Part shown: piece by piece, positions 387-43,825 of the stretch
Layout: each line of letters begins with the position of its first letter
Position numbering within the stretch: the stretch's first letter is position 1
NCBI RefSeq assembly: GCF_037042905.1
Contig: NC_087251.1
Location: 44,580,001 to 44,644,000, forward strand
Length of the DNA: 64,000 bases
Direction: 5' to 3'
Origin: Lytechinus pictus
Taxonomy: Eukaryota
Translations under genes and position numbers: made by a program
The notes under the pieces: generated by a model
The model's input: the letters and a program-made list of their open reading frames with translations, nothing else
Database searches by the model: none
Told to the model about the DNA's origin: nothing

Positions 387-1578
387 CTGCTTGATAAATT
401 GCGCAGCTAGACGGTGCATGTTTTCATCATGTAGGAGTGTCTGAAGGAGAGACTTGGCAAACTCCTCTGCCTTCATGGCCACATGCTCATGCTCCAGAGA
501 TCGTGAGGCTACTTGCGATACTTCCACAGCAACATTTTCTCTGATAGGATCCCGCAATAGGTACACCATCAGACCTGAAATGGAAAGAAAAAAATTACAT
601 GGATTTCATTCAAATCACTGTCAAAGATTTTTCATGAGTCACAAGTAACATTGATTAATTCCTTCAGTATTTTCCAGCATATTTTATCATTTTCTGTTAG
701 GGGCCTAGATCTATATGGATAATCCTGTTACATCAAAGGTGATTTTAAAAATCTAATTAATGCTCTCATTAATCTAGGCTACATCATCGAGATGAGACTG
801 TTGAATTACGACTCAAAATTTATCAGAGTAAAACCCTATATTACTGTAAAACAAATAATGTTTGTCATGTCTCCGGACGTAGACTACATTTAACATTATC
901 TAAACTTAGACCCCTAATCTCCATGATCTATTTACCTATGATGATGAAAACTCCTACTCCAATACGAACAGTCGAGTACCCGTGAAATCTGAGTGAGTTC
1001 TCCAGCTTCTTCAGCTTCTTCAGCTGGTGGAGGACAGATCTGTGGTCTTGGTCATGTTTCACTGGTTGGCCTGATGATGACTGCGTTGAGGCAGGATTAG
1101 ATGACAAGTATCTGGTGGAACTAAAATTCCAATGACAAACATTTGCCAATTTTACTTGAAGGAATTTCAATTGGAGATGTTGTTGCCTCCAAGTCCAAGA
1201 AGACAGTGGAATTGTTGAGAAACAGTTTTCTGACTTTAATGTTAGATGCTGTGATGAGGAATCATGAGGCCGCCTTGCCCTTGATGGTTGTTGAAAATGG
1301 GATAAAACATACGACGTTGTGAATCTAACACTAAACTCGGTCTCGGGAGTTCTCACACGGGAGCTGTGCAATGAATCAAACAGGATCCTTGGAGAGGAAT
1401 ACCCCGAACGCCAGGCGGGAGCGATGCCCAGGCCCGCGTTGCCTGACGTTAGTGATAATGAAGAGCTGACGGGAAAGCCATGGTTGCCAGAGGCTCTAAA
1501 GTTGATACTTTTTCGACAAAAAGAAATAACAAAACCATTTCTAAAATAACCAACAGATGAAAATACATTCATCTTCAT
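387..1578 (-). CDS. Uncharacterised, probably mitochondria-targeted single-pass membrane protein; first two coding exons, gene continues off the left edge
   Basis: Exon 1 is 1578-936 (ATG to ...ATAG|gtaaat, phase 1) and exon 2 is 574-387 (tttcag|GT..., ends AAGCAG|gtatac). The join is in frame: ...RFHGYSTVRIGVGVFIIIG/LMVYLLRDPIRENVAVEVSQVASRSLEHEH... The N-terminus is R/S-rich and acid-poor (presequence-like), followed by one hydrophobic segment and then amphipathic helices. Confidence 0.75.
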
Positions 1579-1699
1579 ATAACCAATTAACAGATCGTTT
1601 CAGCGAAAAAAGCGTCCAATACTACAATAATGGAGCAATAATCCAACAAGTTCAGTCCCCAGTCCATGAAATTCAGACTTCAGAACGAATGCATTCATT

Positions 1700-2001
1700 T
1701 TGATACCGGTACCGTACGTATGGCGTCTTTGGGTGTTTAGCAGACGACGCGCGACAACCGCGAGCCTCGGGCGCAAGGCGTTTAGCACGGCGCTGAGACG
1801 TACCCCCGCCTAGCCTACGCTACCGTCCATCCACCGGGCGCATTCGGCGACGGGCGACACACGTACACGTCACGTACACCGGCGTAGTGCACCTGCATGA
1901 CTGCACTGCAGCAGTGATTCGCGGATTCAGTTACCTACCGTACTTGAAAAAGAAAAGTGGTCAGTGTTCCTATTCCTGTCAGCTTGTGACTTCGAATAAG
2001 A
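1700..2001. promoter_or_regulatory. CpG-rich bidirectional promoter region
   Basis: GC/CpG-dense stretch (about 1720-1925, with ACGTAC repeats at 1861-1879) in otherwise AT-rich DNA. It lies between divergent start codons at 1578 (minus) and 2002 (plus). Confidence 0.6.
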
Positions 2002-5000
2002 ATGCAGAAACGCAAGGAACTCATTTTAGACGAATTTGAGACGGTAAGATTCTATTATTTCAAAGATTTCAAGCGCCAAGTGAAGAGTAATTTTTTTTTG
2101 AAAGACTGAGTTTAATAAACATGTTAAACGTCGTCTATGACTTGTTATGGACCCACCTGTTTCTATTCACGTACGGTACCCGGTACGTTTTAATAGAAAC
2201 AAGTGGGCCAGTCAACTCAAGTCAAAGACGTCGATGATGGTTGAGACTATATTGGCGTCGATCCGGCAGGTCATTAATATTCATGAGCTTGGAGATCTTG
2301 TTCGACCGATGACGTTGCTCATTAATATTAATATTACGGTAACACATTGGGAATCGCGGGTGCGCCTCACCACTTACAACTTTACCCTATCAAGTGCAGT
2401 TATACTGGCGTAAATCTAACCCAGAGAGCTCCAGCCCGCGTAGCGGGCTGGAGCCCAGACGCGCAGTGTACAAACGGGCATTCAGGTGAGAGTACCGTGA
2501 AGTTTGGTCAATATCATTTACATAATACATAATTTAAACAGAAATTAAGCACTTACCACGATTGTATGGATGATAGTCTAACGAGTGGCAGTTTCCTGAC
2601 ATCGAGGCACAGACTGGAACCTCAAAAAACGATCAGTTCTGTCGCGGTGTCTCTCCTTCTTTCAAAATTCATAGCAAAATGGCCGTTCGAGAGGGTGTAG
2701 GGCGCATGCGCGAATTTGACAAAGTCTATATGCGCTAGTGCTATACTAGCCTCGGTCTCGATCGGCCATTTTGTGTTGAATTCTGAAAGAGGAGAGCTAC
2801 CGCGACAGAACTGATCGTTTTTTGAGGTTCCAGTCTGTGCCTCGATGTCAGGAAACTGCCACTCGTTAGACTATCATCCATACAATCGTGGTAAGTGCTT
2901 AATTTCTGTTTAAATTATGTATTATGTAAATGATATTGACCAAACTTCACGGTACTCTCACCTGAATGCCCGTTTGTACACTGCGCGTCTGGGCTCCAGC
3001 CCGCTACGCGGGCTGGAGCTCTCTGGGTTAGCGTAAATCCAGCAAAATCCGGCAGTTTTTTATGGAAATAACCAAAATAATGATAATGAACCCAAATGAA
3101 AGTGTTGGTTTGTCCAACTTGTTGGAAAAGACAGCATGGAGCTAGTAAAGCAGAAACCATTCATGGAAAAAGATTGACAACTTGTATTTTCAATTCCCTC
3201 GGCCTCATCATCATGATCATGTCAATGTGCATAAAACTGGCGTCGATTCAGCATCTTTGGCGCCAATCCGGCAGTTTTTATGGAATTAACCAAAATAATG
3301 ACAATGAACCCTCTCTCTCTTAGCTGATCCCTCCACTATTTGGAGATTCCTAGGGTCCAAGGTAAACAGATATGTTCCATATACGCTGTCATTCTGGTTT
3401 AGGAGGTTTGAACCATGTCAGTACGGAATACATCAATTTTGTGGAGGAAAAAGAGAGATAATAGGAGTAAACTATTGTGTAGTTCCTTGGGCAAACAAAG
3501 TGTTGGTTTGTCCAACTTGATGGAAAAGACAGCATGGAGCAAGTAAAGCAGAAATCATTTATGGAAACAGATTGACAACTTGTATTTTAAATTTCCCATT
3601 CATATCAATGTGCATAAAACTGGCGTCGATTCAGCATCTTTGGCGCTAATCCGGCAGTTTTTATGGAATTAACCAAAATAATAACAATGAACCCAAATCA
3701 AAGTGTTGGTTTGTCCAAATTGATGGAAAAGACAGCATGGAGCAAGTAAAGCAGAAATCATTTATGGAAAAAGATTGACAACTTGTATTTTAAATTCCCC
3801 CATCATGATCATATCAATGTGCATAAAACTGGCGTCGATTCAGCATCTTTGGCGCTAATCCGGCAGTTTTTATGGAATTAACCAAAATAATGACAAGGAA
3901 TCAAATTCAAAGTGTTGGTTTGTCCAACTTGATGGAAAAGACAGCATGGAGCTAGTAAAGCAGAAATCATTTATGGAAAAAGATTGACAACTTGTATTTT
4001 CAATTCCCCCATCATCATGATCATGTCAATGTGCATAAAACTGACGTCGATTCAGCATCTTTGGCGCTAATCCGGCAGTTTTTATGGAATTAACCAAAAT
4101 AATGACAATGAATCCAATTCAAAGTGTTGGTTTGTCCAACTTGATGGAAAAGACAGTATGGAGCTATAGTAATGCAGAAATTATTTATGGAAAAAGATTG
4201 ACAACTTGTATTTTCAATTCCCCCATCATCATGATCATGTCAATGTGCATAAAACTGGCGTCGATTCAGCATCTTTGGCGCTAATCCGGCAGTTTTTATG
4301 GAATTAACCAAAATAATGACAATAAACCCAAATCAAAGTGTTGGCTTGTCCATCTTGATGGAAAAGACAGCATGGAGCTAGTAAAGCAGAAATCATTAAT
4401 GGAAAAAGATTCACAACTTGTATTTTCAATTCCCCATTCATTATCAATGTACATTAAACTGGCGTAATTCCAGTTTCTACTGGGATAAAGAAAAAAAATC
4501 AGATTACAAGGTTCAAATCGGATCTCTGAAAAAATATTTTTACCAAACAGCAGTTACTTCATAAACAAAAATTAGATAATGTAATAGTTTCATCAGTATC
4601 ATTGAGTTCTAAAATGTTTTTGTCTCACCTGCATAGCAGAGCGAGACTATAGGCGCCGCTTTTCCGACGGCGTCAACACCAAATCTTAACCAAAGGTTAA
4701 GTTTTTAAAATGACATGTATGTGGACCTAGTTCATGACACTTGGACATAAGGTTAATCAAGTATTACTGAACATCCTGCCTGAGTTTCAAGTCACATGAC
4801 CAAGGTCAAAGGTCATTTAGGGTCAATTAACTTTGGCCAAGTTGGGGGCATCTGTTGAATTACCATCATAACTTTGAAAGTTTATGGATCTGATTCATGA
4901 AACTTGGACATAAGAGTAATCAAGTATCACTGAAGATCCTGTGTGAGTTTCAGGTCACATGATCAAGGTCGTTTAAGGTCAATGAACTTTGGCAAAGTTG

Positions 5001-8000
5001 GGGGTATATGTTGAATTACCATCATAACTTTGAAAGTTTATTGGTCTTGTTCATAAAAATTGGATATAATTATGAGTAATCAAGTATCACTGAACATCCC
5101 GTGCGAGTTTAAGGTCACATGACCAATGTCAAAGGTCATTAAGGTCAATGAACTTTGGCCAAGTTGGTGGTAATTATGAAATTGCTGTCACAACTTTCAA
5201 AGTTTATGGATATAGTTTATGAATTGTTTATGAATAATCTAGTATCACTGACAAGTCTTAGGTTACATGATCAAGGTCAAATGTCATTTAGGGTCAATGA
5301 GCATGTATTATATCATTATATGAATGGTGTTTTTTGTAAATAATTATTTCATAGTTTTCAAAGTCAGCACTGGTACTATATTGAATTGTGTAATGCAGGT
5401 GAGACTGCCAGAGGTGCTATCACTTGTTATGCAAGGCAGATTCCCTCATATTAGAGTAATAAAGCTAAACATATATTCTGCCCTAATAGGTATGTAACCG
5501 AAAGTACTTAGATTTTACAAACTTTTTTGGAATACCGGTACCTTAAATTTATTACAGAAGGGAGAAATAAGTGTGGAAACTGAGCTAAAATATTCTCTTG
5601 TGTTTCATGAAGATGCAAGTGATTATTAGATAAATTATGTTAAACTCTCAAAATGATGAAGAATGAAATGAATAAATGAAACATGATGTTGAATCACTGT
5701 TTCAGGTGTGTAAATACGATATATGTTTTCATTGTGTTAGTTCAGTGTTTTCAATTGTTGACAAACTCAAATTGTTTTTTGCTCCACCCCCACCCCAAAG
5801 TGTCTCAATGGTATGCATCCTGTAGTGGTGGATGAATATGTGATATGGTATTGTGAGTGTATGTGATGTGTTTTGGACCAAGTAATTTTGTCCACGCTTA
5901 GCACTGCAGTGTTAGCTTCAAATTAACAAAATTTCCACATGTTTTCTTTTCCTCTTTATTTCTCTCTCCTTCCTCTTATTACTTCTTATTATTTTTCTTC
6001 CTCTTTCATTGTATTTCTTTTTTTCCCTTCTAGTCAAGCTTTCTTTTCATCTCATTTATTGATTTTTGCAACATTTTTCATAACAAAATTCTGGACAAGA
6101 AAATACATACAATTTCGACATCAAGATAATGAACAATACTTTTGTACATAAATCATCAAATATATCATACATAAATGAAAAAAATATTAAGTGGTATTTT
6201 CTGTTACAAAATAAATAGGATGGTTGCAAAAGCAAAGCTTGAAAACCAGTGGCGTACCTGGCATATTTCGTCAGGGGGGCAAAAATGAGCAAAGTGGGGA
6301 TATCAACTTCACAGTTTTTAATTTTCGAGCGAGCAAAGCGAGCGAACATTTTTTTTCAATAATTATTTTGCCTTTTTACATGATATGAAACTTGCAGAAA
6401 TTATACATTCGGTCATAAAATTACCAATACACGAGGATATTTGGGCACCTCGCAGTCCCTGTTGCCCTGCATTTTGCAGCCCATCCCCATACACGTTTGG
6501 ATGTGTAGGTCTGGAAGTGGCACTGAAGATGGGAAAGGTTACCCTGGGGGTGCCCAATAAAACAGCTGGGATCTTGCTACTACTGATATTTCCTATCGGG
6601 CGATTGCACTTTATTGTCGAAATTAATTCTTTTCTTTTTTTTATATCATTCCAGAAATGAAATGTACAGTGGATCGTGATAGATATATTTCTAATCAAGT
6701 GTTAATTGCAATGTTTATATAAAAGGAAAATGAAACCCTTGAAACATGATAGCTTATGCAATAACAGAAAAATCAAAGAAACAAATAAACGAAAGTTTGA
6801 GAAAAATTGAATGAATAATAAGAAAGTTATGAGTATTTGAAGTTTAGATCATTATTAATTGAGTAATGTAGATCCTCCTATTGGCAATGCGACAAAGATG
6901 TGTGATGTCACATGTGAACAACTTTCCCATTACTTTTCTATATATTTCACTTAAAATGCCTCTTTTATCATATCTATCAGTATAGATCATGTATTCTTTC
7001 TATATGAGGGCATGTAATACAGATTTTAAAAGAATGCATTTTGATAAAGAGTATGTATCACACTAACAAAGAGCAAAAATAGACATTTTCAGGGTATTTT
7101 ATAGTCCATCAAAGGGAAAGTTGTTCACATGTGACATCACAAATATTGGTCACATTGCCAATAGGAGGATCTCCATAGCATTAGTGATCACAATATTCCA
7201 ATCAACCAAAAAATTACACGGGGGCGGCGGGCGAATTCGCCCCGGAAAGTCCAAAAAGAGCCCCGGAAAAGGGCTAAAAACATTCACACGAGGGCGACTG
7301 CAAAACTCATAATCGCCCCCGTCAACACTGTATATTTCACAGTGGCAAATTGTCCATAGACTGTGTACAACGAATAGACCGTCTCAGCTCAGCGAATCGG
7401 AGACCGCTGATTGGCCAATCGCGCAGATCACGTCATGACTACGTGGTCGCCAAAATAATTCCTTCGGACTGCCTGCGAAAGTATCGATAGCGATAACGAT
7501 ATCCGGTCACATTGTCTACGCGGGAAATGGTCTTGGTTCGTGATCGGATCGCTCCAGTATCGATCGAAAATTATCGAGACTCGGCAATTTCATGCATATT
7601 CACGCGACGCTCCGAAACCCGGAAATCAATTGACTTTGTACACGTTGCGATAGACTCTACAGACTCCAACGAACACGATGCTATATCAACGCTAATTCGT
7701 AAGATTTTGACCGAAAATCAAGAAGTAATCGAAATTCGCTTACCTGTTCGGTATCGGTGAGAAAATAGATCCTCCGAGAATACCTTTCATAATTCATATA
7801 AATTATAGGAAAGTGAAATTCTAGGTCGATTTTGGTACGAGGTGATAGAGTATTGCACACTTGTTTTGGTGGAATACTGTGTGGGGCTATGGAAGGCTTG
7901 CACTGCGCATGCTTACTATATTTTCATTCATAAATTGGCTCTCGGCAGTGGCTGGATGACGTCATGTAATAAGCAAAATATACACGCCCGCTAGCGTTGA

Positions 8001-11000
8001 ACGCACCGCATGTACAGTACATCTTGTTAAAGCAGAGCCTGCAGCAGAGCAGCCCTGCACTGCTGACCAGCATCCCTTCAATGTGGCACACACACACACA
8101 CACCCCCACACACACACCCTCACACACACACACACACAAACGCAAAAAAGCCGCGAAATAGCTCCAGAAATTGTAGACCAAAAGCTTCGGTCTCTGTTAT
8201 GTTGGTTGTTCAGCTGAACTCCGTTGGCTTCACTCACCAAATACAGAGACCGAAGTTCTAGCGCGATCTGTACAGGGGACTCAATGGCCATATGTTTATG
8301 TACTTAAGATCGGATAAAACGGGGAAGTGAATTTGCACGACAGCTGAGGTAAGTCACTGTTTTTGTTCCTTTTAACTTGATTTTTCTCTGTTTTTTTGCA
8401 ATTAATGCCAAGAGGGAATATTAATTTGCATTTTGGTCACGTTAATTTTCAAAAATTTTATTCATTAAAGACAAAAATTGAAGAGCCCCGACGGGGGGAT
8501 TTTGCATTGCAAGTCCCCTAATGGTGGCTGCACGCTAGCGAGCCGTCTGTGTACGAGGAGAAAAAAAAAAAAAAAAATGTTAAAAAACTCCTCGAAACAG
8601 ACGGCTGCCAGCTGTCTACAGAAATTGTAGCCCTGGAAAGTGGAAAAAGAGCCCTGGAAAATGAAAAAGTAGCCCTGGAAAATTTTTAAGTTTCTCCAAA
8701 AAGAGCCCTGGAAAGAAAAAAAGTAATTTTTTGGTTGATTCCAATGCTCATAACTTTCTCATTATTTGTCTGATTTTTCTCAAACTTGCTTTGATCTTAT
8801 ATTTGAATTTTCTGTTTCCACAAAAGCCAACTTGTTTCAAAGATTTCATTCCCCTTTAAAATACTTCTTTAATTCCTCTTTAAAGGTTTTTACATTATGT
8901 TCCCAATTCTGCTCATTTGGAGATGTTATAAAAGAGGTATTTGACATTGAACTCAGTTGTGTTTCATGTATTGACTTGCATTTGTTTTATTTCCATACAT
9001 TCACTCATAAAAAAATAAATATGAACGTGAAAATATATGCGACAGTAACATGATATATCACTAGATCGCTCACTCACTAGCAGGAATGTCAGAAGATTGA
9101 GGGAATTGAAATTGGAAAATATAGATAGGCGGACGAAGGGATCGGGTATCAGGATAGGAAGGGGGTACTGTAATAACCAGAGGAATGTGTAAGCAGGGGT
9201 ATAGCTAGGCCTTTACCGACAGATATCAGTACCGATTACTGACGTCCGACGACCAATACTCATTTATATCCAACCCATGGGCAGATCCAGGATTTTCAAG
9301 GGGAACATTTGTTTACAAAAAAAATGACAAGCCCCACCCCCAAAAAGTCTTCACTTTCACTTGCACGTGCCTAACAACTAACATTAAAATTATATTAAAA
9401 TAATAAATGCGAGCGTGAAGCGCGAGCTGAAATTTTCTAAAAATTTAGACCCAAAACAATACATTTCTGTACTTAACTATATGAATAGGATGAGTATCTT
9501 CCTTAATAAATTAATAAAATATGCGAGCGCGAAGCGCGAGCTACAAATTTTGAAATTCCTAACTGGACACTAGACATTCTAAGCAGTTTTACAAGATGGG
9601 TATCTAAACAGTCGTGCGGGCACAAAGCGCCAGCTAAAGCTTTTGATATTCCGATTTAAGAACTGGATATTCTAAACACTTTTAGTAACCATGAACAAAT
9701 CGGTTTCTAACTGAATAATTAATTGATGCGAGCGCCAAGGGCGAGCTGAAAATTTGAGATATTCCCCCCTAAAAAGTGAACATTCTAAGCACCTTTTTTA
9801 AATTATGAACAAGATGGTAGTTAAAAACAATTAATTGGTGAGAGCGCGAAGCGCCAGCTGAAAACTTTTGATATTTTGACCTGAAAACTTTACATTCTAA
9901 GCACTTCATTTAATTATGAACAGGATGGAACTTTATGCGAGTGCGAAGATCGAGCGGCAATTTTTGATATTCCAATCTAAGAATTTGATATTCTAAGCAA
10001 TTTTTGTAACCGTGAACAAATTGGTTTCTAATTATATACTTTTGATATTTTTTATTTTCCGACCTGAAAACCGGACATTCTAACCAATTAATTTATCTAT
10101 GAACAGGATGGATATACCTAAATAGTTATATGTGAGCACGAAACGCGAGCTGAAATTTTCGATATTCCGGCCTAAGAACTGGATCAGTTGGAACAATCAG
10201 TTGGAACAGCCTCGTGTGCCCGACAGTTTATCATTTTTTCCGACAGTCTGCAGTCCAATTTTTGTTTTTCCACTTTCTCTTAAACTCTATCTTCTTTTTC
10301 CCTTCCCCCTTTTTTCTCTCTTTCCTTTTTCCTCTTTTCTTTTTTCTTTCCCCTTTTTCGCTTCCTTTTTTTGTTTGTGACTCGTCAGGGGGGGGGGGCA
10401 GTCTGCCCCCTGCCCCCCCCCCTTAGGTACGCTAGTGTTGAAAACGTAACAGCCCTGGAAAATAGCCAAAATAATTAATATCTATTATCGTAAGACGTGC
10501 AAGTGCACTCTTCTACTTCTTCGCTGTCCTCAACTCCTGCATGGCTTTCATGCCCCCTTCGTCTTAAAGTTGGAATGACGTTAATTGTTTGGTTTTGGTT
10601 AATTTCATAAAAACTGCCGGATTAGCGCCAAAGATGCTGAATCGACGCCAGTTTTATGCACATTGACATGATGATGGGGGAATTTAAAATACAAGTTGTC
10701 AATCTTTTTCCATAAATGATTTCTGCTTTACTAGCTCCATGCTGTCTATTCCATCAAGTTGGACAAACTAACACTTTGATTTGGGTTCATTGTCATTATT
10801 TTGGTTAATTCCATAAAAACTGCCGGATTGGTGCCAAAGATGCTGAATCGACGCCAGTTTTATGCACATTGATATGATCATGATGATGGGGGAATTGAAA
10901 ATACAAGTTGTCAATCTTTTTTCATAAATGATTTCTGCTTTACTTGCTCCATGCTGTCTTTTCCATCAAGTTGGACAAACCAACACTTTGATTTGGGTTC

Positions 11001-14000
11001 ATTGTCATTATTTTGGTTAATTCCATAAAAACTGCCGGATTAGCGCCAAAGATGCTGAATCGACGCCAGTTTTATGCACATTGATATGAATGGGGAATTT
11101 AAAATACAAGTTGTGAATCTTTTTCCATAAATGATTTCTGCTTTACTTGCTCCATGCTGTCTTTTCCATCAAGTTGGACAAACCAACACTTTGATTTGGG
11201 TTCATTGTCATTATTTTGGTTAATTCCATAAAAACTGCCGGATTAGCGCCAAAGATGCTGAATCGACGCCAGTTTTATGCACATTGATATGAATGGGGAA
11301 TTTAAACTACAAGTTGTCAATCTTTTTCCATAAATGATTTCTGCTTTACTAGCTCCATGCTGTCTATTCCATCAAGTTGGACAAACCAACACTTTGATTT
11401 GGGTTCATTGTCATTATTTTGGTTAATTCCATAAAAACTGCCGGATTAGCGCCAAAGATGCTGAATCGACGCCAGTTTTATGCACATTGATATGAATGGG
11501 GAATTTAAAATACAAGTTGTCAATCTTTTTCCATAAATGATTTCTGCTTTACTTGCTCCATGCTGTCTTTTCCATCAAGTTGGACAAACCAACACTTTGA
11601 TTTGGGTTCATTGTCATTATTTTGGTTAATTCCATAAAAACTGCCGGATTAGCGCCAAAGATGCTGAATCGACGCCAGTTTTATGCACATTGATATGAAT
11701 GGGGAATTGAAAATACAAGTTGTCAATCTTTTTCCATAAATGATTTCTGCTTTACTTGCTCCATGCTGTCTTTTCCATCAAGTTGGACAAACCAACACTT
11801 TGATTTGGGTTCATTGTCATTATTTTGGTTAATTCCATAAAAACTGCCGGATTAGCGCCAAAGATGCTGAATCGACGCCAGTTTTATGCACATTGATATG
11901 GGGAATTTCAAAAATACAAGTTGTCAATCTTTTTCCATTAATGATTTCTGCTTTTCCAGCTCCATGCTGTCTTTTCCATCAAGTTGGACAAACCAACACT
12001 TTGATTTGGGTTCATTGTCATTATTTTGGTTAATTCCATAAAAACTGCCGGATTAGCGCCAAAGATGCTGAATCGACGCCAGTTTTATGCACATTGATAT
12101 GAATGGGGAATAGAAAATACAAGTTGTCAATCTTTTTCCATAAATGATTTCTGCTTTACTAGCTCCATGCTGTCTATTCCATCAAGTTGGACGAACCAAC
12201 ACTTTGATTTGGGTTCATTGTCATTATTTTGGTTAATTCCATAAAAACTGCCGGATTGGCGCCAAAGATGCTGAATCGACGCCAGTTTTATGCACATTGA
12301 TATGATCATGATGATGGGGGAATTGAAAATACAAGTTGTCAATCTTTTTCCATAAATGATTTCTGCTTTACTAGCTCCATGCTGTCTATTCCATCAAGTT
12401 GGACAAACCAACACTTTGATTTGGGTTCATTGTCATTATTTTGGTTAATTCCATAAAAACTGCCGGATTAGCGCCAAAGATGCTGAATCGACGCCAGTTT
12501 TATGCACATTGATATGAATGGGGAATTTAAAATACAAGTTGTCAATCTTTTTCCATGAATGATTTCTGCTTTACTTGCTCCATGCTGTCTTTTCCATCAA
12601 GTTGGACAAACCAACACTTTGATTTGGGTTCATTGTCATTATTTTGGTTAATTCCATAAAAACTGCCGGATTAGCGCCAAAGATGCTGAATCGACGCCAG
12701 TTTTATGCACATTGATATGAATGGGGAATTGAAAATACAAGTTGTCAATCTTTTTCCATAAATGATTTCTGCTTTACTTGCTCCATGCTGTCCTTTCCAT
12801 CAAGTTGGACAAACCAACACTTTGATTTGGGTTCATTGTCATTATTTTGGTTAATTCCATAAAAACTGCCGGATTAGCGCCAAAGATGCTGAATCGACGC
12901 TAGTTTTATGCACATTGACATGATCATGATGATGAGGGAATTGAAAATACAAGTTGTCAATCTTTTTCCATGAATGGTTTCTGCTTTACTAGCTCCATGC
13001 TGTCTTTTCCAACAAGTTGGACAAACCAACACTTTCATTTGGGTTCATTATCATTATTTTGGTTATTTCCATAAAAAACTGCCGGATTTTGCTGGATTTA
13101 CGCCAGTATAACTGCACTTGATAGGGTAAAGTTGTAAGTGGTGAGGCGCACCCGCGATTCCCAATGTGTTACCGTAATATTAATATTAATGAGCAACGTC
13201 ATCGGTCGAACGAGATCTCCAAGCTCATGAATATTAATGACCTGCCGGATCGACGCCAATATAGTCTCAACCGTCGATGATATGGATGATACGATGACTG
13301 GGACCACATGTTAGGGTATGGTACACTCTAAGTTAAGATATGTGTAAAAATGTTAATGGTTGTGAATTGTGTTGTCATTGTGAGATAATTCGTGATTCTG
13401 GGCCTGGGAAGAGGGTTGTGCATTGCACTCTAGGCGACACCCCAATACTTACCCGTGCTAATAAACTGGGACTCCACTCACGCGCATTTGGGCCGCCCTA
13501 GCTTAGAACTAAGCAATATTATCTAGAAATTGTCATGAAATATGTTCTATTAAATAAATTGATAATGTTTAATCGGTACTCACCGGTTCTTTTGTTGCAT
13601 TTTCAGACCATTTCTCACAATTCTTCGTAAATATTTGCGGCAAATTTTGTCGCCATAGACAGCTATACATCCATCTTTATTAATAAATGGAGCGCCCTTT
13701 ACGATAGTTGTTAATGCCGCGGAGAAATCGTTAGGCATTTTGGCATGTGTTCAAGGCGTTCTTTCTGTTTTATTTTTTATATTGAAGATTGTGCATTTGT
13801 TGAATAGCGCCGTCTACGTCAGGTATGAGATCGAGTGTATAAATACACTCTTCCAAAATAATTATGATTCCGACCTGGCGCTGTTTAACTTCAATCTCTT
13901 TCACCTAAATTAGCGATGAATGCTAGCATTATAAAATATATATTATTAACGTCTGACGAAAAGAATAACCAACCGATCAGCTGACGAGAACGCGAATCAC

Positions 14001-17000
14001 GTGATCTTCATATCAGCTTCGATCGCGAGTCAGAAGTGAAGAGCAACTGCCCAGAAAATCAGGAAAAAGCCGTGAAAATGTAAGTTCCCCTTCATTTCTT
14101 TCATTTTTTTTGTTGTTGCTAACGATGCATTTACACTATAAAATTATAATTTAAATAAGAGAAAGGAATATAGCTTGTACTTGTGATATAATATATAAAT
14201 ATCCTGTTCTCAGAGATTTCTAACCAAAAATACTACTGATGTCGCCTATGAGGTCCATACATGTAATGTTTGGACCTCATTGGTACTACTCAGTAGCACT
14301 ATAGGCGACACCCCAATACTTACCCGTGCTAATAAACTGGGACTCCACTCACGCGCATTTGGGCCGCCCTAGCTTAGAACTAAGCAATATTATCTAGAAA
14401 TTGTTAAACTCTAGTCATGAAATATGTTCTATTAAATAAATTGATAATGTTTAATCGGTACTCACCGGTTCTTTTGTTGCATTTTCAGACCATTTCTCAC
14501 AATTCTTCGTAAATATTTGCGGCAAATTTTGTCGCCATAGACAGCTTAGCATCCATCTTTATTGATAAATGGAGCGCCCTTTACGATAGTTGTTAATGCC
14601 GTTAGGCATTTTGGCCTGTGTTCAAGGCGTTCTTTCTGTTTTATTTTTTATATTGAAGATTGTGCATTTGTTGAATAGCGCCGTCTACGTCAGGTATGAG
14701 ATCGAGTGTATAAATACACTCTTCCAAAATAATTATGATTCCGACCTGGCGCTGTTTAACTTCAATCTCTTTCACCTAAATTAGCGATGAATGCTAGCAT
14801 TATAAAATATATATTATTAACGTCTGACGAAAAGAATAACCAACCGATCAGCTGACGAGAACGCGAATCACGTGATCTTCATATCAGCTTCGATCGCGAG
14901 TCAGAAGAGAAGAGCAGCTGCCCAGAAAATCAGGAAAAAGCCGTGAAAATGTAAGTTCCCCTTCATTTCTTTCATTTTTTGTTGTTGCTAACGATGCATT
15001 TACACTATAAAATTATAATTTAAATAAGAGAAAGGAATATAGCTTGTACTTGTGATATAATATATAAATATCCTGTTCTCAGAGATTTCTAACCAAAAAT
15101 ACTACTGATGTCGCCTATGAGGTCCATACATGTAATGTTGGACCTCATTGGTACTAGGAGTGGTGCATTGTGTGGTCTGCAGTGACCCAGTGTTGCCTGA
15201 GTGTCAGTCTCGGCTCTGAACATGCTGAACAGCCAGAGGAAAGTCTGAAACGAGAAAGAGAGAGAACAGTTGAGAATCGAGATCTTATTTCGACATGTAT
15301 TGTTACTGGACTTAGTCAAATTTCTAGTTTTTTTAATTATTTCTCCTCGTACACAGATGGCTCGCGAACGTGCAGCTGCCATTTTGGGGGTTGCAATGCA
15401 AAAAAAACCCGTTGGCGACGGGGGTCTTTGATTTTTCACTTTATTCTAAATAATTACATAAAAAATTCCCTAATAGAAAGTTGATTATTCTGTTTTTGCA
15501 CCAAAACGGGAAAAAATGAACTTAAAAGGGAAAAAAAGGAGTGACTTACTTCGAGTTAGGCTGTCGTACAACTCCCATTATATCCGAAGGTGTTATAATA
15601 CACAAACATATTATGGCCTTCGGAAAAACTTCTGGGTCGAAACCATTGGCCAATCAGATCATCCCTTCTAATATCTGGTTGGATTGCTTGTCGATCGTAC
15701 GCAAGCGACAAACGTTCAAGTTTCAACTCATGGAAACATCTAGGCACTGTAAATGATGTAAGGGTCAAAGGGTGGAGTCTGTGGTCACTTTTATGAATAT
15801 TCAGAACCAAGATGGCAACTTACAGATTCATCTCATGAAGAATTTGATTTTAACCAGTTTCCAGGCGGGAATATAGGGTAAGAAATTAGTCCAAGGGTAC
15901 GATATAATTAAATACAGCGGTCGTAATAGGTTATGTACTTAGGTAATACTAATAAGATTAAACTTGTTTGTGGGGGTTCTTTTTAACTTTGCTATTTCTG
16001 CCATTTATCCCTGTACAGATCAAGTTAGAACTTCGGTCTCTGTAATTGGTGAGTGGAGCCAGCGGAGTTCAGCGGAACAACCAATATAATGGAGACCGAA
16101 GCTTTTGGTCTAAAACCAGTCTAGAATCTAGATCTAGACTGTCTATTTGCTTTTTTACCATCTTGTTTTGTTGTTTCCTTATAGAAATTACAAATGTATT
16201 TTTGCTTCTTTTTGTTATTAAATTTTTTTTTTGAAATTCCTTGTCTACAATTAGGAAAGTCCTCAATAAAATAGCACAATTCCTATCCAGGATAGATCTA
16301 TATTAAAAGAATATAGATCGATGTGGAGCTACATTATTTCTACAGAGTGAAGGTATCTAAACCTTTTACAACACTCGACTCTGCCCAGTGACTAATCTGC
16401 AACTAATTGCTTGTGGTATTACTGAAGATGCAGATTGAGGCTCTACGCTGCACTGTATTGATGGCACAGGTTTTTAATCCTGCTCTTGACTTGATGGTTG
16501 ATATTGATGGCTAAAAGATTTGTAATAAATTGATAATAGTAGTTTTTTTCCATTTCATGTAGACAAGGCAATACTGAATTTCAAAAACTAAGAAAATATT
16601 CACTTAGTCTGGTGGATGTAATGGCAGCTGGGCATGATAACGAATTTGGATTTTTTTTTCGGGTGAATAGTTTAAAATATTATGTGCACATGAAGTTATT
16701 TTGTGACTCGTATTTTGTGCGCTTTGACTTTATTAGTTGAGGTAATGCAATCGCATTCCAAAAGGAAGACAACAAACATACTCAATTGTGTCTGTTTGAC
16801 CATGATCATGCATTTGACCTACGAGCTCCCGGAAATTTCATGGTTGTCTAACCTTGATTTAGCTTAAAAACTAAAAGCCTTGGGATCATTGTATTTACTG
16901 ACAGCATACAGGGCTCCACAAACCTCAGCTTTTTGCACAAAGTTAATCGATTCCCAGGGAGTGGAGGATGTGCATACATTGTGTGCGGGAATGACTGATT

Positions 17001-19973: not shown

Positions 19974-20635
19974 GAATGGCTTCATAGTTTGATGGAAAAA
20001 TTCAATAAGCGTACTCCACGGTCGTACGAGGGAGCATTTTATAAAACATAATTTTCACTGACTGCTGTTATAAGCTACTCAGAATTCCTTGCTTCTGATT
20101 GGTTGGGAGCAAATTAGTCAGTGAAAATCACCAACACAAATATCACTGACAAAACTTGCAGAGGAGTTCAAGACAGAACTGCGCTTCCAGAGTTCCACCG
20201 AGATGGCCCTCAAATAAGTTAGTGAGGCCAATCTGGTAGGGCCATATGAATGAAAATAATATAGGGTATTTGTATAGCACACTTATCCACCTTGTCAGGT
20301 GCTCAAGTTGTTCAATTATTACCTCGGTCATTGCTCACAGCTTTTTTTTTTAAGGAATTCATGCCGGTTCCCATTTTCCTCTGTTTCAAAGTCCGGAGAC
20401 TAATCCACTTGGCCACAATGCTCCACACCAACTTGTGTGCCATCCATGCCAAGAGGTTTACCATATGCTAAAAGATAATTCATGAAACACACCCTAGGAC
20501 TGGCAGCAAACGCATGGTAGAGGCAATTTGTTCTTGATGCAGATCAGTTGCTAAACATACTTTTTTTCTAACATATCACAATATATTGGGGGAAGTTATG
20601 ATTGAGATCAGAATCAAGCTTAGGTTAGTATTTAA

Positions 20636-21227
20636 AGGTCAAGTCCACCCCAGAAAAATGTTGATTTGAATAAATAGAGAAAAATAAAACTAGCATAATG
20701 CTGAAAATGTTATCAAAATTGGATGTAAAATAAGAAAGTTATGACATTTTAAAGTTTCGCTTAATTTCACAAAACAGTTATATGCATATCCTGGTCGGTA
20801 TGCAAATGAGACTATGATGTAATCCACTCACTATTTCTTTTGCATTTTATTACATAAAATATGAAATATTATAATGTTCTCCTCATTGTCAAGTGAAACA
20901 ATTATTAATTCCTCCCTGAACATGTGGAATTAGCATTGTTTAATAATTCAGTCAAGTTGGTCTTTGTTGTCAAATATGTAAAAAATGAAATATTGTATAA
21001 GTCAAACAATAAAAATCAAAAGAAATAGTGAGTGAACGACATCATCCGCTGCCTCATTTGAATGTCACTGAATTGTGCATATCATTGCTCTGTGAAAAAT
21101 AAGCGAAACTTTAAGAAGTCATATCTTTTTTATTTTACATCCGATTTTTAAGAAATTTTCAGTGTTATACTAGTTTGATTTTTCTCTATTAATTCAAATA
21201 AATATTTTTCTGGGGTGGACTTAACCT
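20636..21227. mobile_element. TTAA-target MITE (AGGNCAAGTCCACC family)
   Basis: TTAA|AGGTCAAGTCCACCCCAGAAAAAT...ATTTTTCTGGGGTGGACTTAACCT|TTAG with long imperfect arms. Same family as 42169-42766 and 46727-47513. Confidence 0.85.
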
Positions 21228-22302
21228 TTAGGTTTGTGCAGATTTGGTTTAATTGCAATAACAGCCAAGTCTGTGATGCATTAGTGGTGTTGTTCATCGA
21301 TTGATGCAACAAGGACCTATTCATCTTGGGTGTTGAACATTAGGGGTTCGTTGCCAAATGCACTTATCATTCACCAGCGCGAGAAACAGTTACAAAACAC
21401 ACTGAACAGTTCCAAATGTGCGATGTATTTACAACGTTTAATTGCAGATCACCTCTTGCGACTACCTCACGGTTTCACCAATTGTGTGTGTGTGTGTGCG
21501 CAGTTTAGCTCGTGTAATTCAGCAAGTGTATTCAGCAGGCGGTTTGACTGAAAGCTATAGAGAAAATAACATAAATGATAGATGGTCTATAATACAAGAA
21601 AAAAGATACTAGTACTTACTTATAAACAACTAAGTAAATATAAAAGTAAACAGTTCAATACAATTTATATACAACCCATACCAATGCATACGTAATAGTT
21701 GACTGTTATCAGCACGTGAATAAAATCCTAATTATTCATATCTCCATCTTAATTTGGGAAACATAATTATATCATGGTAAATATCAATAAACTCAAGCTG
21801 TGAAAGTATTTTAAAGTCAAATAAAGAACCCATCAATGCATAATGATATGGTTATAACTCACTAACAACTGAGAAGAGTATTCAATTAATACTTAATACA
21901 CTAGTTCTGATAAACTGATAGATACTACTGCTGAAACAATTCTTATACATAAAGATAAATATAAAATAACTCACCAACTGTTAGAACCCGATTAACAACA
22001 GCTTAATCAGGACTACTCTCTTTTTCAAAGTCCAACCTCTCCTCTTAAGAGTGATTTTGAACACAATGAATAATGCTCTTGCTTGAACCCAGTATAAATG
22101 CATCTTCTTCCACACAAAGAGAATTATGGGAAAGTTACACCCTTTGGTCACTGCGTTGGTCATCGGATCTATCACTACTTAAACATATATACCCAATTAG
22201 ACACTGCTAAACACTGGAGTGAAGGAATTTGGAGGATACATATAATACACATGCTATATGCTCTGCTTAAAACTAAGGTGTCCTAATTCTAACTCCCATA
22301 CT

Positions 22303-23139: not shown

Positions 23140-26100
23140 TTATAGGACGCACGTAAAACCTAACCCTAAAAAATCTTCTTGGCACATTGAAAACGAATCA
23201 GTATCGAGATTGTGAGCCACTTCAAGGTGCACTGCCCTGCTTGCAAGGCATGTGAAGATACATCCATATCTCTTCACTGTTTTCCGCCCTTCCTTAACAT
23301 AGAATGGCCCAAAATAATCAATGCCAACACTAGAAAATGGTGGTTTGTCAGGTGTGACTGTCTTTAGGTAAATCTGCCATGAACTGTTGCCCTCTGGCAG
23401 CATTCCTCTTCTTACATCTGAAACTTCTTTCAATTGTTTTGCGTACTGTAGCTCCACCATTAATGATCCAGAACCGCTCTCTCAAGGAGTTCATGTAGCA
23501 CCTGCACCACAATGTCCCACCAATATGTGATGATGAGCAGCTTGGTGACATGGTGTCCACTTGGAATGATCTCGGGGTGTTTGCTATCATATGGTACTGA
23601 TGAATTAGCCAGTCTTCCACCAACGCGCAACACTCCATCTACTATGACAGGATTAACCTTTGCTAAGCTAAGACCAGAGGTCTTCTTAGCACTCCTATCA
23701 ACAACTTTCAGCTCATTAGGGAACTCTCTCGCTGAGCGTACTTAACAATAGCCACTTCAGCCTCCTGCAGCTCTGCAGGAGAAAGCACATTGTTGGTGCA
23801 TGGCTCTTTGTTTTCTGACCTCTTCAAGCAAAGCTATCTCAAGAATCGCCTGATCCAGGCAGCGCCCTTCTTGAGTCTCGTCAATGGTGATTATTGTTTC
23901 AGGAGATCATCCTGTCACTACTGACAAAGTTGCTCTTTGCTATCTATTTCACTTCAAGGTCTCCTTGAAGTTCTTGCATCGATCAAAGGAGATGCAAGGG
24001 TTGTGGCCATTGATCCTGTTTCTTCCACAGGAAATCAGGCCCATTAAGCCATCTTGATTTGGAAGTCATTTCACCTGCAGACAAGCCTCTAGACCCCTCA
24101 TCTGCGGAATTCGACTTCGTTTTTACAAATCGCCACTGCGCAACATCAGTTGCAGCACAGATCTTAGATACATGATTAGCCACAAATGTATGAAAGTGCC
24201 TACTCTCATTTAAATATGCTGATGTAGAATCTGTGTAGTAAGTGGTTGTGGCTATCAGCAGCTTCAACTCTTTCAGGATGGTCTGGCCATGCAGGACTGC
24301 CAGAACAGCTCCTGAGAGCTCTAGATTTGGTATTATAGTCTTCACTGGCGCTAGCCTTGTCTTCCCCATAACAAAGGCACTGTGAACCTTTCCTTCCGCA
24401 TCCTCTGTACGGAGAAAGGCCACTGCTGCATACGTTCTCTGGGAAGCATCGCAAAAGATGTGTAAGTCGTGTCTTGATGTCTCTGCATTTGTATTTAGTT
24501 TCAGACACCACTGAATCTGCAGTCCTTGCAGTTTGCTTCCATAAAACTTGTTCAGCTTCACCAACAACTTGATCCCATCCTATGCCTTCTATGCAAACAT
24601 CCTGCAAGAGAATCTTTGCTACCAGCAAAAACTGGGGCTACAAATCCGAGAGGATCGTATGAAACACTGGTCACCGAGGATTTACCTTGAAAGTGAAGAT
24701 GTCAGCTTCATTATTCCAAGATACCCCAAGAGTTCGCTCCATGGGAGGACTATCAAAGTCGAGGTCAATTACAGATGCTGTTTGCTTGGAAGGAGGGATA
24801 CTGGCAATGACATCATAGTCATCACTGACCCACTTCGTGAGTCGAAATCCTCCAGCTGACAGCACCTTACGTAGACCTCTTGAAAGGTCTTTTAGTATCT
24901 TGTCGTGTTGCCACAGACATAAGGCAGTCATCTACGTATAAAAGTTATCTTTCACTGCCTTCGTCGCTTCCTCGAGCCCCACTCCGCCATTTTCCTCGGC
25001 AGCCTTCCTCAGTGCAAAAGCTGCACATCTTGGAGAGGAAGTGGCACCAAACAAGTGAACCAACATCATGTAGGTCCTTGGACAAGTCTCCTTTAGGCCA
25101 CCAGAGAAATCGCAGCGCATCACTGTCTTTAGGTGCTACCTTCACCTGGTGAAACATTGCTTCAATGTCGGCCATCAAGGCAACCCTTTCTTCTCTGAAT
25201 CTTTTCAAGACGCCAACTAGGTTATTATTGTAATCAAGTCCTTGGAGTAGCTGGTCGTTCCGTGATGTGCCATGGCTCCAGGCCGCACAATCAAAGACTA
25301 CTCGTACCTTACCTTTCTGTGGATGGACAACTGGATGATGAGGCATGTACCATGTCTTTCCTGAATGACATGTACTATCCACATCAGACACTTCTTGAGC
25401 ATAGCCTTTCTCTATGTAACCCGCCACAGTTTCTGTATACTTCTCATGCATCACTTGGTCCTTAGCCAAGCGCCTCTGTAATCGCATTTTCTTGCCATCG
25501 GGCAGATTGACATCCGGATGACACCAGGGCAATCCAATCTCATAGTGCCTATCGACCTTTTTGACTGTTTCTTTGAAGATCGCTTGAACTCGCTGATCTT
25601 CTACTGACAGCCCCCTTTTATCCTCATGGCAGTGCTCCATAGTCTTTGGAGCAAGTCATCACCCATAAATGTATGAGTGAAGTTAGAAGTGAACCCTGAC
25701 CTCTGTCTACTTTGGTCCTAGGTTGGTCCTAGTGGGTCCATCACAATACTGTATGCATAGCATATGGTTCTCCCTTCTTACCTTGTCTGTCTTCCTTAAC
25801 CCAAAATGCTTCCGGAGTATCCCCTCCAATGAGGAGCATTACTTCATTGGAATCGATTTAAGGGATGGTGATGTCATCATCAGAAATCGGCAACTTCTCG
25901 ACTGTCCACACCCCTTCTAAGTCAATGCATTTAGTTTCCTTAATTCCAGAGACTGAGAGTTGGATCTCTGTACCACTCATCTCCTTGTTCTCCTGGTTAA
26001 TAGTAGACAGATTAAACCTTTTCTTGTCACCTTTTATACCCAGTTTCTGGGCGAATCTCTTGTCACAAAGTGAGACATCACTTCCCCCATCAAGACCCCA

Positions 26101-26490
26101 AGTTTTGACTTCTCGACCACAATTTCTTACTTTAACAGGGGTTATTCTCAGACAGACCTTCCTATTAACTGATGCAGCCAGACTGGTAGCCGATGGTTGG
26201 TTTGAAACATTCCCAACCTTGTCATTTCTGTCATCACTGGCCCCGGTTGAGTCCTAGGTTGGTCCTAGTGGGTCCATCACAATACTGTACGCATAGCATA
26301 TGGTTCTCCCTTCTTACCTTGTCTGTCTTCCTTAACCCAAAAAGCTTCCGGAGTATCCCGATAGCCGATGGTTGGTTCGAAACATTCCCAACCTTGTCAT
26401 TTCTGTCATCACTGGCCCCGGTTGATGCATCCAGCCGTAGGAATTAAAGGACATGGTGCTTACCTCTACAGTCCTGATCACACAAGGACT
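23140..26490 (-). pseudogene. Fragmented BEL/Pao gag-pol polyprotein
   Basis: ORF-track pieces 24945-25640, 24932-25123, 24671-24931, 23983-24567, 23348-23638 and 23140-23460 carry consecutive RT, RNase H and integrase motifs in different frames. Confidence 0.9.
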
Positions 26491-40900: not shown

Positions 40901-43825
40901 CGTCTCTGCCCTCCACGTGTGCAAGTTTTTGCTCTTGTAGAATAACACATCGTATGGAGATGGATGACTGTAATTTCAGATGAAGAGATCGAGGTCAACA
41001 GGATTACCTCACCTTGTAACATGATGATGACATAGATTTACATATATATTTATCCATGAAAAAAATGTTCTAGTGAAGAATGTTAATCCATTAAAATTAA
41101 AACACAATAGTGAAATAACTCACCATTATTTCTATGTGAGAAAATCATTTCATGTATGTTTTAATTACATCTAGATATTATTCACTTACTTAGTCCTAGA
41201 TACACAAGCAACCAGGCATTTTGTTCTTTTATGTAATGTGCTTCATTTTATGAATTTGAAAAAAAGATGAGTCAAAGCATCACTGGCTGCCAAGCACAGA
41301 TGAAGTGCACAAAGTCCATCCATCATTTTATTTCATAATTTAAAAATATTACAGAAACTATACCTGGTGGGTGTTTCATAAAGCTGTTCATAAGTTAAGA
41401 GCGACTTTAAGGACGACTGGTGATCCTTTCTTGTGGTAAATGGTATATTCATCGGCGATGGTTTAGCGCGTAAGAAAGGATCACCAGTCGTTCTTAAAGT
41501 CGCTCTTAACTTACGAACAGCTTTATGAAACGGCCCCCAGAATGCAAGGCTACATATTGAAAGGTGTTTGAGACAATTCATATTCTATATTTCTATCAAT
41601 AGTGCACATATAGGCCTATACTTAATTGAAAGAAGAAAAGGAATGTAATCAAGAAATAATATTTGCAAAAAAGTGCTATGCACATAAGTGCTAAAATTCA
41701 AAGAGAAACTATACTCACATCATCATCACTTTCTGATGTCTCAGACTCAGAATTGCTCTTTTGCGAAGTTGATTCCTTGGCCGACTCTGGCTCCACCTTT
41801 TTCCTTTTGGCTAAAGTAAGCAGTTCCTGGCAACGGCAATAAAATAAGAAAACAAGCTTATCAATAGTGGGATGAAAGGAAGAAAAGCTCTGTAAAGTTC
41901 AAATCAGAATTTTGAAGTTTTTAGTTCAGAAATAGGGTTTATTTAGTTTTGGAGGTTACATTTTATGTTTGGCTTAATGCGTAGATTTTCAATTGGAGCA
42001 ATTGTCACCAGAGCAAATGTCATGAAACTGGAAAAATACTAGCCTTGAGGACTCAGTGATGGTATTTTTAAATACACTTTTACATCATGAAGCCTTGAAA
42101 CCCTCCCCATACTTGCCTAAGCGGGACATGTAAACACGGATGGATTTCCCTAGGAAATCCATAATTAAAGGACAAGTCCACCCCAACAAAACAATGAATA
42201 GAATAAAAAGAGAAAAATCCAACTAGCATAACGCTGACAATTTCATCAAAATCGGATGTAAAATAAGAAAGTTATGATATTTTTAAGTTTCGCTTAATTT
42301 CACAAAACAGTTATATGCACATACCGGTTGGTATGCAAATGAGGGAACTGATGACGTCACTCACTCACTATTTCTTTTGTATTTCATGACATGAAATACA
42401 AAATATTCTAATTTTCTCCGCATTGTCCTGTGGAACAAAGTTTTATTTCTCCCTGGAAATGTGGAATTACCATTGTCTAACATTTTATGGTTCAGTCAAG
42501 TTGGTCCTTATTGTCAAATCTGTAAATTTGAAATATTGTATAATTCAAACAATAAAAAACAAAAGAAATAGTGAGTGACATCATCGATTCTCTCATTTGC
42601 ATGTGACTAAATTGTGCATGCAACTACTTAGTGAAAAATAACCGAAACTTTAAAATGTCATGACTTTCTTATTTTACATCCGATTTTGATGAAATTTTCA
42701 GCATTATGCTTGTCTGATTTTTCTCTATCAATTCAAATCAACATTTTTCTGAGGTGGACTTGACCTTTAAAGCTAGAAATCACGTAAATTTGTTGGATTT
42801 TATTTATCTATATAGGGAAAAATCCATCTGTGTTTACATGTGCCGCTTTAATAGGCAAGTATGGGGGAGGGTTTCAAGGCTTCGTGATGAAAAGTATATC
42901 TATGTAAAAATATTTTTAAATATCATCATGGAGTCCTCAAGGCTAGGTAAATACACCAATCATGCATTATTTTTAGCTATTAACTGGGTTACAATTAAAA
43001 ATCTTGCAATCTGATGATTGCATCACTGCATAATATCACATATATGTGTAGACATATATCACAACTATATTATCTGACAGTAATATTACAAATAATACCC
43101 ATCACCATGGGAATGAACAAGGTAGCTTCATAAAGTTCATTTGTATTACAGTTTTAACACAAAAAGGTTTTTTTTTTTAGAAATTGCAAGAAAAAATTGC
43201 TGATGGTGATGCCCCCACCAGCCACCTTAATTGATTGCCGTCGTGTCTACTTAATCATAGACCTACGTCAAAGAAGAAAAAAATCAAGCAATATTATTAA
43301 TGTGCAAACATTCACTCTCACTCTCAGTCTCACTCTTGGCAGAGAATCCAAAGACTGCATATTATTTACGACCAACATGTGCATGGTCATGGATGGGTCA
43401 TGGCCCATGCCATGCCATTAATTATTTCAATGTCTGCCTGATGACAAACTGATTTTGCTCAACGAATTTAACTTAAGTTTTTGCGATTGTTTTCTGTGCA
43501 AAACAAGCTAAGAAAATGCCAGAAGCAACCCGTCAGCAAATTTTCTTGCAGTTCCATTCCTATATTCCTGAAATTTAGTGACATCAAAATTCAAACACTC
43601 ACTTACTCAGTCTCAGCTAAACTTAATATTCTCAGAAACACACACTCACTGCATACTGCACTGCATGCAGTGCAAATAAATGTGCAACTATCTATCTGTG
43701 TCAGTGTCATGTCTGTCTGTGTGTAAAGTGAATGGAGAAATTACCTCTTCCAGATCCGATTCATTTTCCGATGCAGAACTGTCTGAATTTATCACTGCTC
43801 TGCTTGGTTTCTTACGTTTCGACAT
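31914..43825 (-). CDS. RTF1: RNA polymerase II-associated protein RTF1 (PAF1 complex, Plus3 domain); 17 coding exons, 689 aa
   Basis: Exons: 43825-43745, 41826-41719, 40666-40543, 40040-39854, 39410-39148, 38863-38689, 38029-37946, 37610-37520, 37278-37196, 36616-36529, 36139-36032, 35574-35497, 34743-34622, 34229-34094, 33369-33262, 32668-32539, 32017-31914. All are GT-AG, phases are consistent and the total is 2070 nt. Recognised motifs include [29 protein letters not shown], the Plus3 segment WVHMPFF...GCFVRIGIG...PVYRVAEI...[30 protein letters not shown] and the C-terminal [16 protein letters not shown]. Confidence 0.97.
33724..33879. mobile_element. PIF/Harbinger-like MITE (CWG target)
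   Basis: CTG|GGCCCTGTAACACAAAGGTTAGCGATTAATTGC...GCAATTAATTGCTAACCTTTATGTTTTACGGGCC|CAG. Confidence 0.7.
34787..35021. mobile_element. Degenerate hAT-type MITE in an RTF1 intron
   Basis: Flanking repeat CTATGGG on both sides, ends CAAGGCT / AGCCCTG, and internal GGTGGCCC repeats. Confidence 0.6.
40728..41025 (+). mobile_element. CR1-type LINE 3' fragment
   Basis: Translates as [38 protein letters not shown], the typical CR1 ORF2 C-terminus, followed by a short 3' UTR. Confidence 0.8.
41367..41537. mobile_element. PIF/Harbinger-like palindromic MITE
   Basis: CTG|GTGGGTGTTTCATAAAGCTGTTC...GAACAGCTTTATGAAACGGCCCC|CAG. A near-identical copy lies at 59397-59563. Confidence 0.85.
42040..42945. 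mobile_element. Palindromic TAGCC...GGCTA element containing a nested TTAA MITE (42169-42766)
   Basis: TIR TAGCCTTGAGGACTC / GAGTCCTCAAGGCTA with ~110-bp imperfect arms. Flanks are GAAAAATAC / GGTAAATAC (7 of 9 match). The inner element is bounded by TTAA at 42165-42168 and 42767-42770. Confidence 0.8.

Follow-up and report, generated by a model that had tools for sequence, protein, structure and literature searches.

Five non-coding DNA transposons nested one within another in Lytechinus pictus, with an outermost foldback that may have moved last

Background

When transposons are stacked one within another, is the outermost layer the oldest arrival at the locus? We address this question at a locus in Lytechinus pictus, using a window of 64 kb (RefSeq assembly GCF_037042905.1, contig NC_087251.1, positions 44,580,001 to 44,644,000 of the forward strand) that is AT-rich, with a GC fraction of about 0.37. 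A first-pass annotation had described a five-level stack of transposons at positions 2239-13272 of the window and had drawn from it a relative insertion order for at least five families at a single locus. Tested boundary by boundary, the stack is borne out, with all five layers, L1 to L5 from the outside in, lying at the coordinates claimed. The nest is real and consists of five non-coding DNA transposons, one within another; stacking of this sort is an ordinary route by which transposons accumulate. The answer to the question is that the outermost layer, a foldback element, may have moved last rather than being the oldest. All evidence is internal to the window, and second copies were sought only there. 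Features named without a strand have none assigned.

The five layers and their boundaries

The outermost layer, L1 (2239-13272), is a non-autonomous foldback with a 178-bp terminal domain, arms of tandem units and a non-coding middle. The proposal of a foldback with a 9-bp target-site duplication (TSD) held up fully: the duplication GTCGATGAT at 2230-2238 and 13273-13281 matches at 9/9 positions, the tips are identical over 45/45 bases and the terminal 178 bp match at 177/178, followed by 272 bp with 264 matches and 2 mismatches. Each arm is an array of 201-219-bp units, the two arrays being inverted relative to each other, with about 5.5 units on the left (3040-4445, plus strand, interrupted by a side insertion, B) and about 12 on the right (10593-13094, minus strand; 12.2 copies of 203 bp). 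Of the middle domain, the left part (5429-6238, plus 4446-4620) is AT-rich and single copy in the window, and the right part (10446-10592) carries a minus-strand open frame of 47 codons without a Pfam match. With a GC fraction of 0.32, a CpG observed/expected ratio of 0.46 and a longest frame of 85 codons, this middle would resemble an intron or a 3′ untranslated region (UTR). The long terminal inverted repeats (TIRs) with tandem repeats, the non-coding middle and a TSD within 8-10 bp are the structure of foldbacks of the FB/Tetris type. Mutator/MuDR elements have G..C ends, and the GG..CC ends and 9-bp TSD of L1 fit that pattern as well.

The four inner layers are L2 (6247-10437), L3 (6724-8855), L4 (7203-8737) and L5 (8174-8618). 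The boundaries of L3 and L4 are fixed independently, the register of the L4 duplication aside, because L3 emptied of L4 is colinear with a free copy of its family at 50213-50772. Removing L4 and one copy of its TSD leaves 589 bp of non-coding sequence that align end to end with the free copy (481 matches, 75 mismatches, 37 gap columns), as the first-pass annotation had reported, and the free copy, which contains the empty L4 site, reads straight through it. The proposed junctions hold against the boundaries of the family, a comparison run for L3 alone through this free copy. L3 is a Kolobok-like palindromic miniature inverted-repeat transposable element (MITE). The free copy has TTAA on both sides; the TSD of L3 is imperfect, with TAAA as left target and TTAA on the right, one mismatch. 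Both copies end in AG..CT, in keeping with the 5′-RR..YY-3′ termini that are given, beside a TTAA target, for Kolobok (PMC9587614). The earlier description as a TTAA element is right for the right target and wrong for the left one. The piggyBac superfamily was rejected for L3, whose ends are AG..CT and not the 5′-CC..GG-3′ of piggyBac (PMC10045372). A second, more abundant palindromic TTAA-type MITE family, distantly like L3, occurs at 20633-21230, 42166-42769, 46724-47516 and 60996-61354; its member at 42166 is itself nested within another palindromic element (42039-42946).

L4, 1081 bp when emptied, had been proposed as an element with 15-bp TIRs and proves to be one: its TIRs match at 15/15 positions, the 8-bp duplication ATTCCAAT at 8/8, and its empty site is preserved in the free copy of L3. 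Palindromic target edges allow a duplication register of 8, 6 or 4 bp. Direct subterminal GCCC(C/T)GGAAA repeats stand at both ends, and together with the 8-bp TSD and CA..TG ends they make L4 hAT- or P-like, a pattern that does not separate the two. A copy of the L4 subterminal motif, GCCCTGGAAA, lies at 10448-10463 in the L1 middle, to the right of the L2 TSD; it is the only one in the window outside L4 and may be chance or a remnant.

L5 is a 445-bp element between exact copies of the 9-bp TSD CAGAAATTG (9/9). Its TAGAC..GTCTA ends include a true TIR of only 5 bp, past which the outer ends align poorly. What carries this insertion is a second copy with an identical starting point and an L4 motif that runs across the L5 junction. 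The second copy (15300-16112, minus strand) is longer than L5, begins at the same TAGAC (16112), aligns with L5 at the shared start with 101 matches and 12 mismatches, and has most of the 3′ part in common; its right end and TSD were not found in the window. Among the 960 positions of 7203-8173, setting aside the left subterminal repeats, the right subterminal motif of L4 is matched best at 8159, the L5 junction (9/12). The TAGAC...GTCTA element of the first-pass annotation is upheld by these observations, with L5 interrupting the repeat array of L4. One hairpin is predicted at each end, at about 8184-8256 (-18.3 kcal/mol) and 8532-8615 (-19.6 kcal/mol; both energies without a shuffle control), the left one kept in the second copy. 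The end segments 8174-8261 and 8535-8618 are separate hairpins, an odd design; each lies between TAG..CTA-like motifs (long on the outside, short on the inside). AcademH elements follow a YR..YR terminal rule, which the TAG..CTA ends may fit, with a TIR of only 5 bp. The 9-bp TSD fits both AcademH, for which 9 or 10 bp are described, and MuDR, with 4-10 bp (PMC10045372). The second copy was also considered as a sixth, outer layer and rejected, there being no matching TSD or right end in the window.

L2, 2055 bp when emptied, has an exact 8-bp TSD, TTGAAAAC (8/8), and short, imperfect CA..TG ends that match at 11/13 positions and then at 19/35. Diverged repeats of about 100 bp occupy 9399-10184, and both halves carry GCGAGC-rich motifs. 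Elements of the hAT superfamily have short TIRs beginning with CA, and L2 has the hAT pattern of an 8-bp TSD with a short TIR starting with CA; P and Merlin elements can likewise give 8-bp TSDs. The earlier label "hAT-like" fits in TSD and ends only. L2 is the least secure layer, because a second copy was sought in the window and not found and because two orphan motifs like hAT-like left ends, at 9194 and 9276, lie inside it without partner ends; it may hide further decayed layers.

Chance expectation and coding content

The TSDs of L1, L2, L4, L5 and a side insertion, A, are exact, with 0 mismatches over 43 positions. We compared such patterns with Markov-simulated windows (20, and 40 for the L2 pattern). 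None of the 20 simulated windows contains an 8-bp TSD joined to at least 10, or at least 15, exact TIR bases within 15 kb; at the 15-base setting the real sequence yields L4, an element at 45247-46186 and three pairs within the L1 arms. A 9-bp TSD with at least 15 TIR bases, scanned for in the real window alone, is found there only at L1 and side insertion A. The L5 pattern (9-bp TSD and at least 5 TIR bases within 1 kb) occurs 0.75 times per simulated window (maximum 3) and 5 times in the real one, and is not significant by itself. For the L2 pattern of ends and TSD the simulated mean is 0.175 per window (maximum 2), which by arithmetic from the simulation falls to about 0.004 if limited to pairs inside the L1 middle. 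The claim of recognisable ends on each layer is weak for L2 and L5 considered by themselves, as their short ends are near chance. The element at 45247-46186 is 940 bp long, with the 8-bp TSD ATCTGGTG and a 15-bp TIR of the CCGGGG type.

Inserted elements account for 5812 of the 11034 bp of the L1 span (53%). No transposase remnant was found in the stack from its open frames and from Pfam searches of 9 frames, of which 8 had no match and 1 was below threshold (E=0.022). The longest open frame of each emptied layer has 50-119 codons, and an Rfam scan of 2200-10200 gave 0 matches. All layers are, as far as tested, non-autonomous, and superfamily labels therefore rest on ends and TSDs only. Exact-pattern scans gave 0 loci for the terminal 22-mer of L1 and for a motif of an abundant MITE of the window in metagenome contigs, and 0 loci for an L3 motif in prokaryote genomes. 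A sequencing-run search with 900-10592 as query returned 14 runs from 5 studies; in 0/14 did the share of sampled words reach one half (range 0.08-0.35), and the result is no evidence either way. The literature titles and abstract openings that were searched held nothing on this locus or its families; subscription journals, and Repbase and Dfam, where the families may already be named, lay outside that search.

Order of events

L2 existed before L3 landed, L3 before L4 and L4 before L5, because every layer from L3 inwards breaks the sequence of the one around it and is flanked by a duplication of the kind that staggered cuts leave. Empty sites are present for L4, in the free copy of L3, and for side insertions A and B, in the right arm of L1. 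The insertion order claimed earlier for five families at one locus accordingly stands by containment for the inner four and is too strong for the outer layer: a cut-and-paste element can travel with its passengers, and that L1 was the oldest arrival here does not follow from containment. The stack orders insertion events in a sequence lineage, not arrivals at this locus.

Divergence bears on the place of L1 in this order. Its outer arms differ at 3/444 sites, and L3 has 29/424 private changes (Fisher p=6e-7). In a four-arm alignment of L3 and its free copy (212 ungapped columns), private changes number 19 and 10 for the arms of L3 and 9 and 11 for those of the free copy; just 3 columns group the two arms of the same copy. 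The comparison suggests some 5-7% drift per copy of the L3 family against less than 1% between the L1 tips, whose ends look about 10-fold less diverged than L3. CpG content was tried as an age marker and dropped, for it tracks family composition.

The simplest reading of this contrast is that the move of L1 came later than the insertion of L3 and took L2 and L3 along as cargo, a scenario on which our own judgement is evenly balanced. Each element would have owed its mobility to a transposase acting in trans, a different family's in each case. A foldback copy would have received first L2 and then L3 in its middle domain and, so enlarged, would later have transposed as one unit to its present site, producing the 9-bp TSD and the near-identical tips. 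Side insertion A would have landed after that move, and L4 and L5 either before or after it.

Several points weigh against such a late move. Cargo transport would be read from one copy each of L1, L2 and L4, and the boundary of L2 is the least secure of all. Mismatch between the L1 arms climbs from 2/394 at the tips to 11/189 inside, a gradient that could come from arm-arm conversion or from a parent with unlike arms, in which case TIR identity is no clock. The private changes of L3 may be subfamily differences, two copies being compared. By arithmetic, even an old insertion would have a fair chance of showing a 9/9 TSD (about 0.3, taking 6% per copy), and the TSD of L2 is intact although L2 must predate L3.

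The graded arms are also what speaks for a different history, in which L1 came to this site first and the other layers followed in their order, and either the L1 tips were homogenised by conversion or L3 belongs to another subfamily than its free copy. This is the simplest reading of containment, and L1 was a target several times in any case, having also received side insertions A, B and C; Galileo foldbacks are described as collecting secondary hAT and other insertions in place (PMC2775673). It asks for conversion out to both tips, or for a young L3 that stands about 7% per arm from a star-like relative, and the L3 target copy has a mismatch. We regard it as a real possibility, held tentatively and at less than even confidence. 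Arrival of L2 by insertion into a foldback would be unnecessary if the L1 middle were captured genomic DNA that already held L2, by Pack-MULE-like or composite capture. The AT-rich, single-copy and putatively intron- or 3′ UTR-like character of the middle agrees with that, as does the variation of Tetris middles in size and content (PMC4079207). Yet the one middle frame tested matches neither a host gene nor a transposase in Pfam, no donor locus was seen in the window, and the native middle of a deleted autonomous element would look alike; we think such a capture unlikely. A bolder combination, which we hold as doubtful, makes the foldback a ferry: its arms would have captured genomic DNA with a hAT-like element holding a Kolobok MITE and carried the stack, as one unit of some 10 kb, to the border of a promoter region, spreading dead elements and perhaps a last exon of the host with its 3′ UTR, in the manner of a Pack-MULE and in an animal.

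It is also conceivable, at a very low probability in our estimate, that there are fewer than five true layers, the boundaries of L2 or L5 being chance TSD-like matches or mosaics, or the whole an assembly artefact. The simulated frequencies of the L5 and L2 patterns (0.75 and 0.175 per window) and the orphan motifs at 9194 and 9276 leave room for this. Against it, the second L5 copy shares its start with L5, which interrupts the repeat array of L4; the expectation for L2 is about 0.004 within the L1 middle and GCGAGC-rich motifs occur in both L2 halves; and five consistent TSDs would not be what mis-assembly makes.

Side insertions and surroundings

L1 had been said to carry three side insertions. 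Side insertion A (2417-3030), a 614-bp palindromic element in the left arm, is one by its 9-bp TSD GCGTAAATC (9/9) and its empty site in the right arm of L1; its own arms have 0 mismatches over the first 232 bp, by which it would be young. The TAA..TTA ends may fit the YR..YR rule, and the TSD fits AcademH (9 or 10 bp) and MuDR. Side insertion B (3312-3493) stands as an insertion of 182 bp relative to the right arm and is unclassified: TSD and TIR were sought at its boundaries and not found, and it has no Pfam (one frame) or Rfam match. A mitochondrial insert or a piece of a gene was considered for B and rejected, as its frames (tables 1 and 9) show nothing recognisable and one frame has no Pfam match. 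Side insertion C (4621-5428, plus strand) is HINE/Helentron-like and not a TIR element. It has 13-bp subterminal inverted repeats (subTIRs) at 4622-4634 and 5393-5405, 2.9 central repeats of 156 bp and T-rich flanks without a TSD, all features described for HINEs and Helentrons (12-15-bp subTIRs, T-rich site, no TSD, central repeats; PMC4067079). Its 3′ stem-loop is just a 4-bp stem at about 5414-5425, and the whole segment folds at -3.6 kcal/mol.

An imperfect 64-bp palindrome (2148-2211) lies directly left of the L1 TSD. Farther left, 928-2060 holds a minus-strand frame of 223 codons (928-1599, no Pfam match) and a CpG-rich stretch at about 1700-1960. A candidate plus-strand exon of 14 codons (2002-2043) is followed by a GT donor, and L1 may sit about 190 bp inside a first intron. 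An element at 13426-15162, 144 bp to the right of the L1 TSD, has the 8-bp TSD GTGCATTG and CACTC ends; inside it, two 870-bp units stand in tandem and are 96% identical. Elsewhere, 23140-26425 (minus strand) hold what is left of a broken Pao/BEL retrotransposon (Peptidase_A17, E=4e-23). A palindromic MITE of 175 bp occurs twice, at 41364-41540 and 59393-59567, with 92% identity between the copies, and exon-like frames at 48190-49578 and 52465-53007 have B-box and GBP-type GTPase domains in Pfam; these exons may be ZFYVE1/DFCP1-like.

Depth and meaning of the nest

Counted by hand-picked spans, recognisable elements occupy 20% of the window if the stack is left out and 34% if it is included. 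A random-insertion model puts the number of elements at depth five or more, in 100 Mb, at 0.6, 6, 32 and 125 for transposon fractions of 0.2, 0.3, 0.4 and 0.5, and a simulation with discrete lengths gave 0, 2, 7 and 61 for the same fractions. The chance of a depth-five nest in a given 64-kb window is 0.0004-0.08. Depth five is locally uncommon, yet it should be expected somewhere in a repeat-rich genome, and this window was picked for its nest.

For teaching, the stack is a clean example, and those who curate repeat libraries can take from it the exact ends of six or seven non-autonomous families. The general lesson is cautionary: in nests of DNA transposons the oldest arrival is not necessarily the outer layer, and one stack therefore cannot date families. 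Should transport as cargo hold for many copies, foldbacks would be vehicles by which dead elements from unrelated superfamilies become mobile again, interruption-based dating would be biased and a route for moving regulatory DNA would exist.

Comparison with known systems

The TU foldbacks of Strongylocentrotus purpuratus are modular, with tandemly repetitive arms and a variable middle as in L1, a likeness of description only; they have 15-bp units and an 8-bp TSD, unlike L1. Closer in structure is Tetris of Drosophila virilis, described with an outer flanking domain, tandem units of about 200-220 bp, a non-coding middle and an 8-10-bp TSD (PMC4079207). The same source reports a motif common to flanking domain and repeat unit, which L1 has at 15/18 bases (2252-2269), and assigns Tetris-like foldbacks tentatively to Mutator on the basis of ends and TSD. 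L1 differs in sequence and host, 53% of its span is inserted, and no mirrored inner domain was seen in it.

Among the inserted elements, the L3 family shares with Kolobok the TTAA target, seen in its free copy, and the RR..YY ends; L3 differs in being without a transposase and in its left target TAAA, and the part of the description consulted does not name echinoderms (PMC9587614). Side insertion C resembles the non-autonomous Helentrons HINE and DINE-1 in its 13-bp subTIRs, central tandem repeats, T-rich site and want of a TSD; the distance from its 3′ subTIR to the end is 23 bp, where mite HINEs have 38-60, and its 3′ stem is weak (PMC4067079).

Dating by interruption treats the inner element as younger than the sequence it interrupts, with old insertions propagated by their host as a stated caveat (Giordano et al. 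2007, PMC1914374). That study took propagated insertions of this kind out of its dating and pooled about 600,000 interruptions, against a single observation per pair in this stack.

Foldbacks holding nested elements have been published. Galileo of Drosophila buzzatii, with nested BuT3, BuT4 and BuT5, is likewise a foldback-type host of class II elements that each have their own 8-bp TSD, the hAT element BuT4 among them (PMC2775673). As described there, Galileo is a member of the P superfamily, has a 7-bp TSD, lies at inversion breakpoints and carries two nested inserts per copy, not a chain five deep. The stack in L. pictus is thus a new instance of a foldback that holds other transposons.

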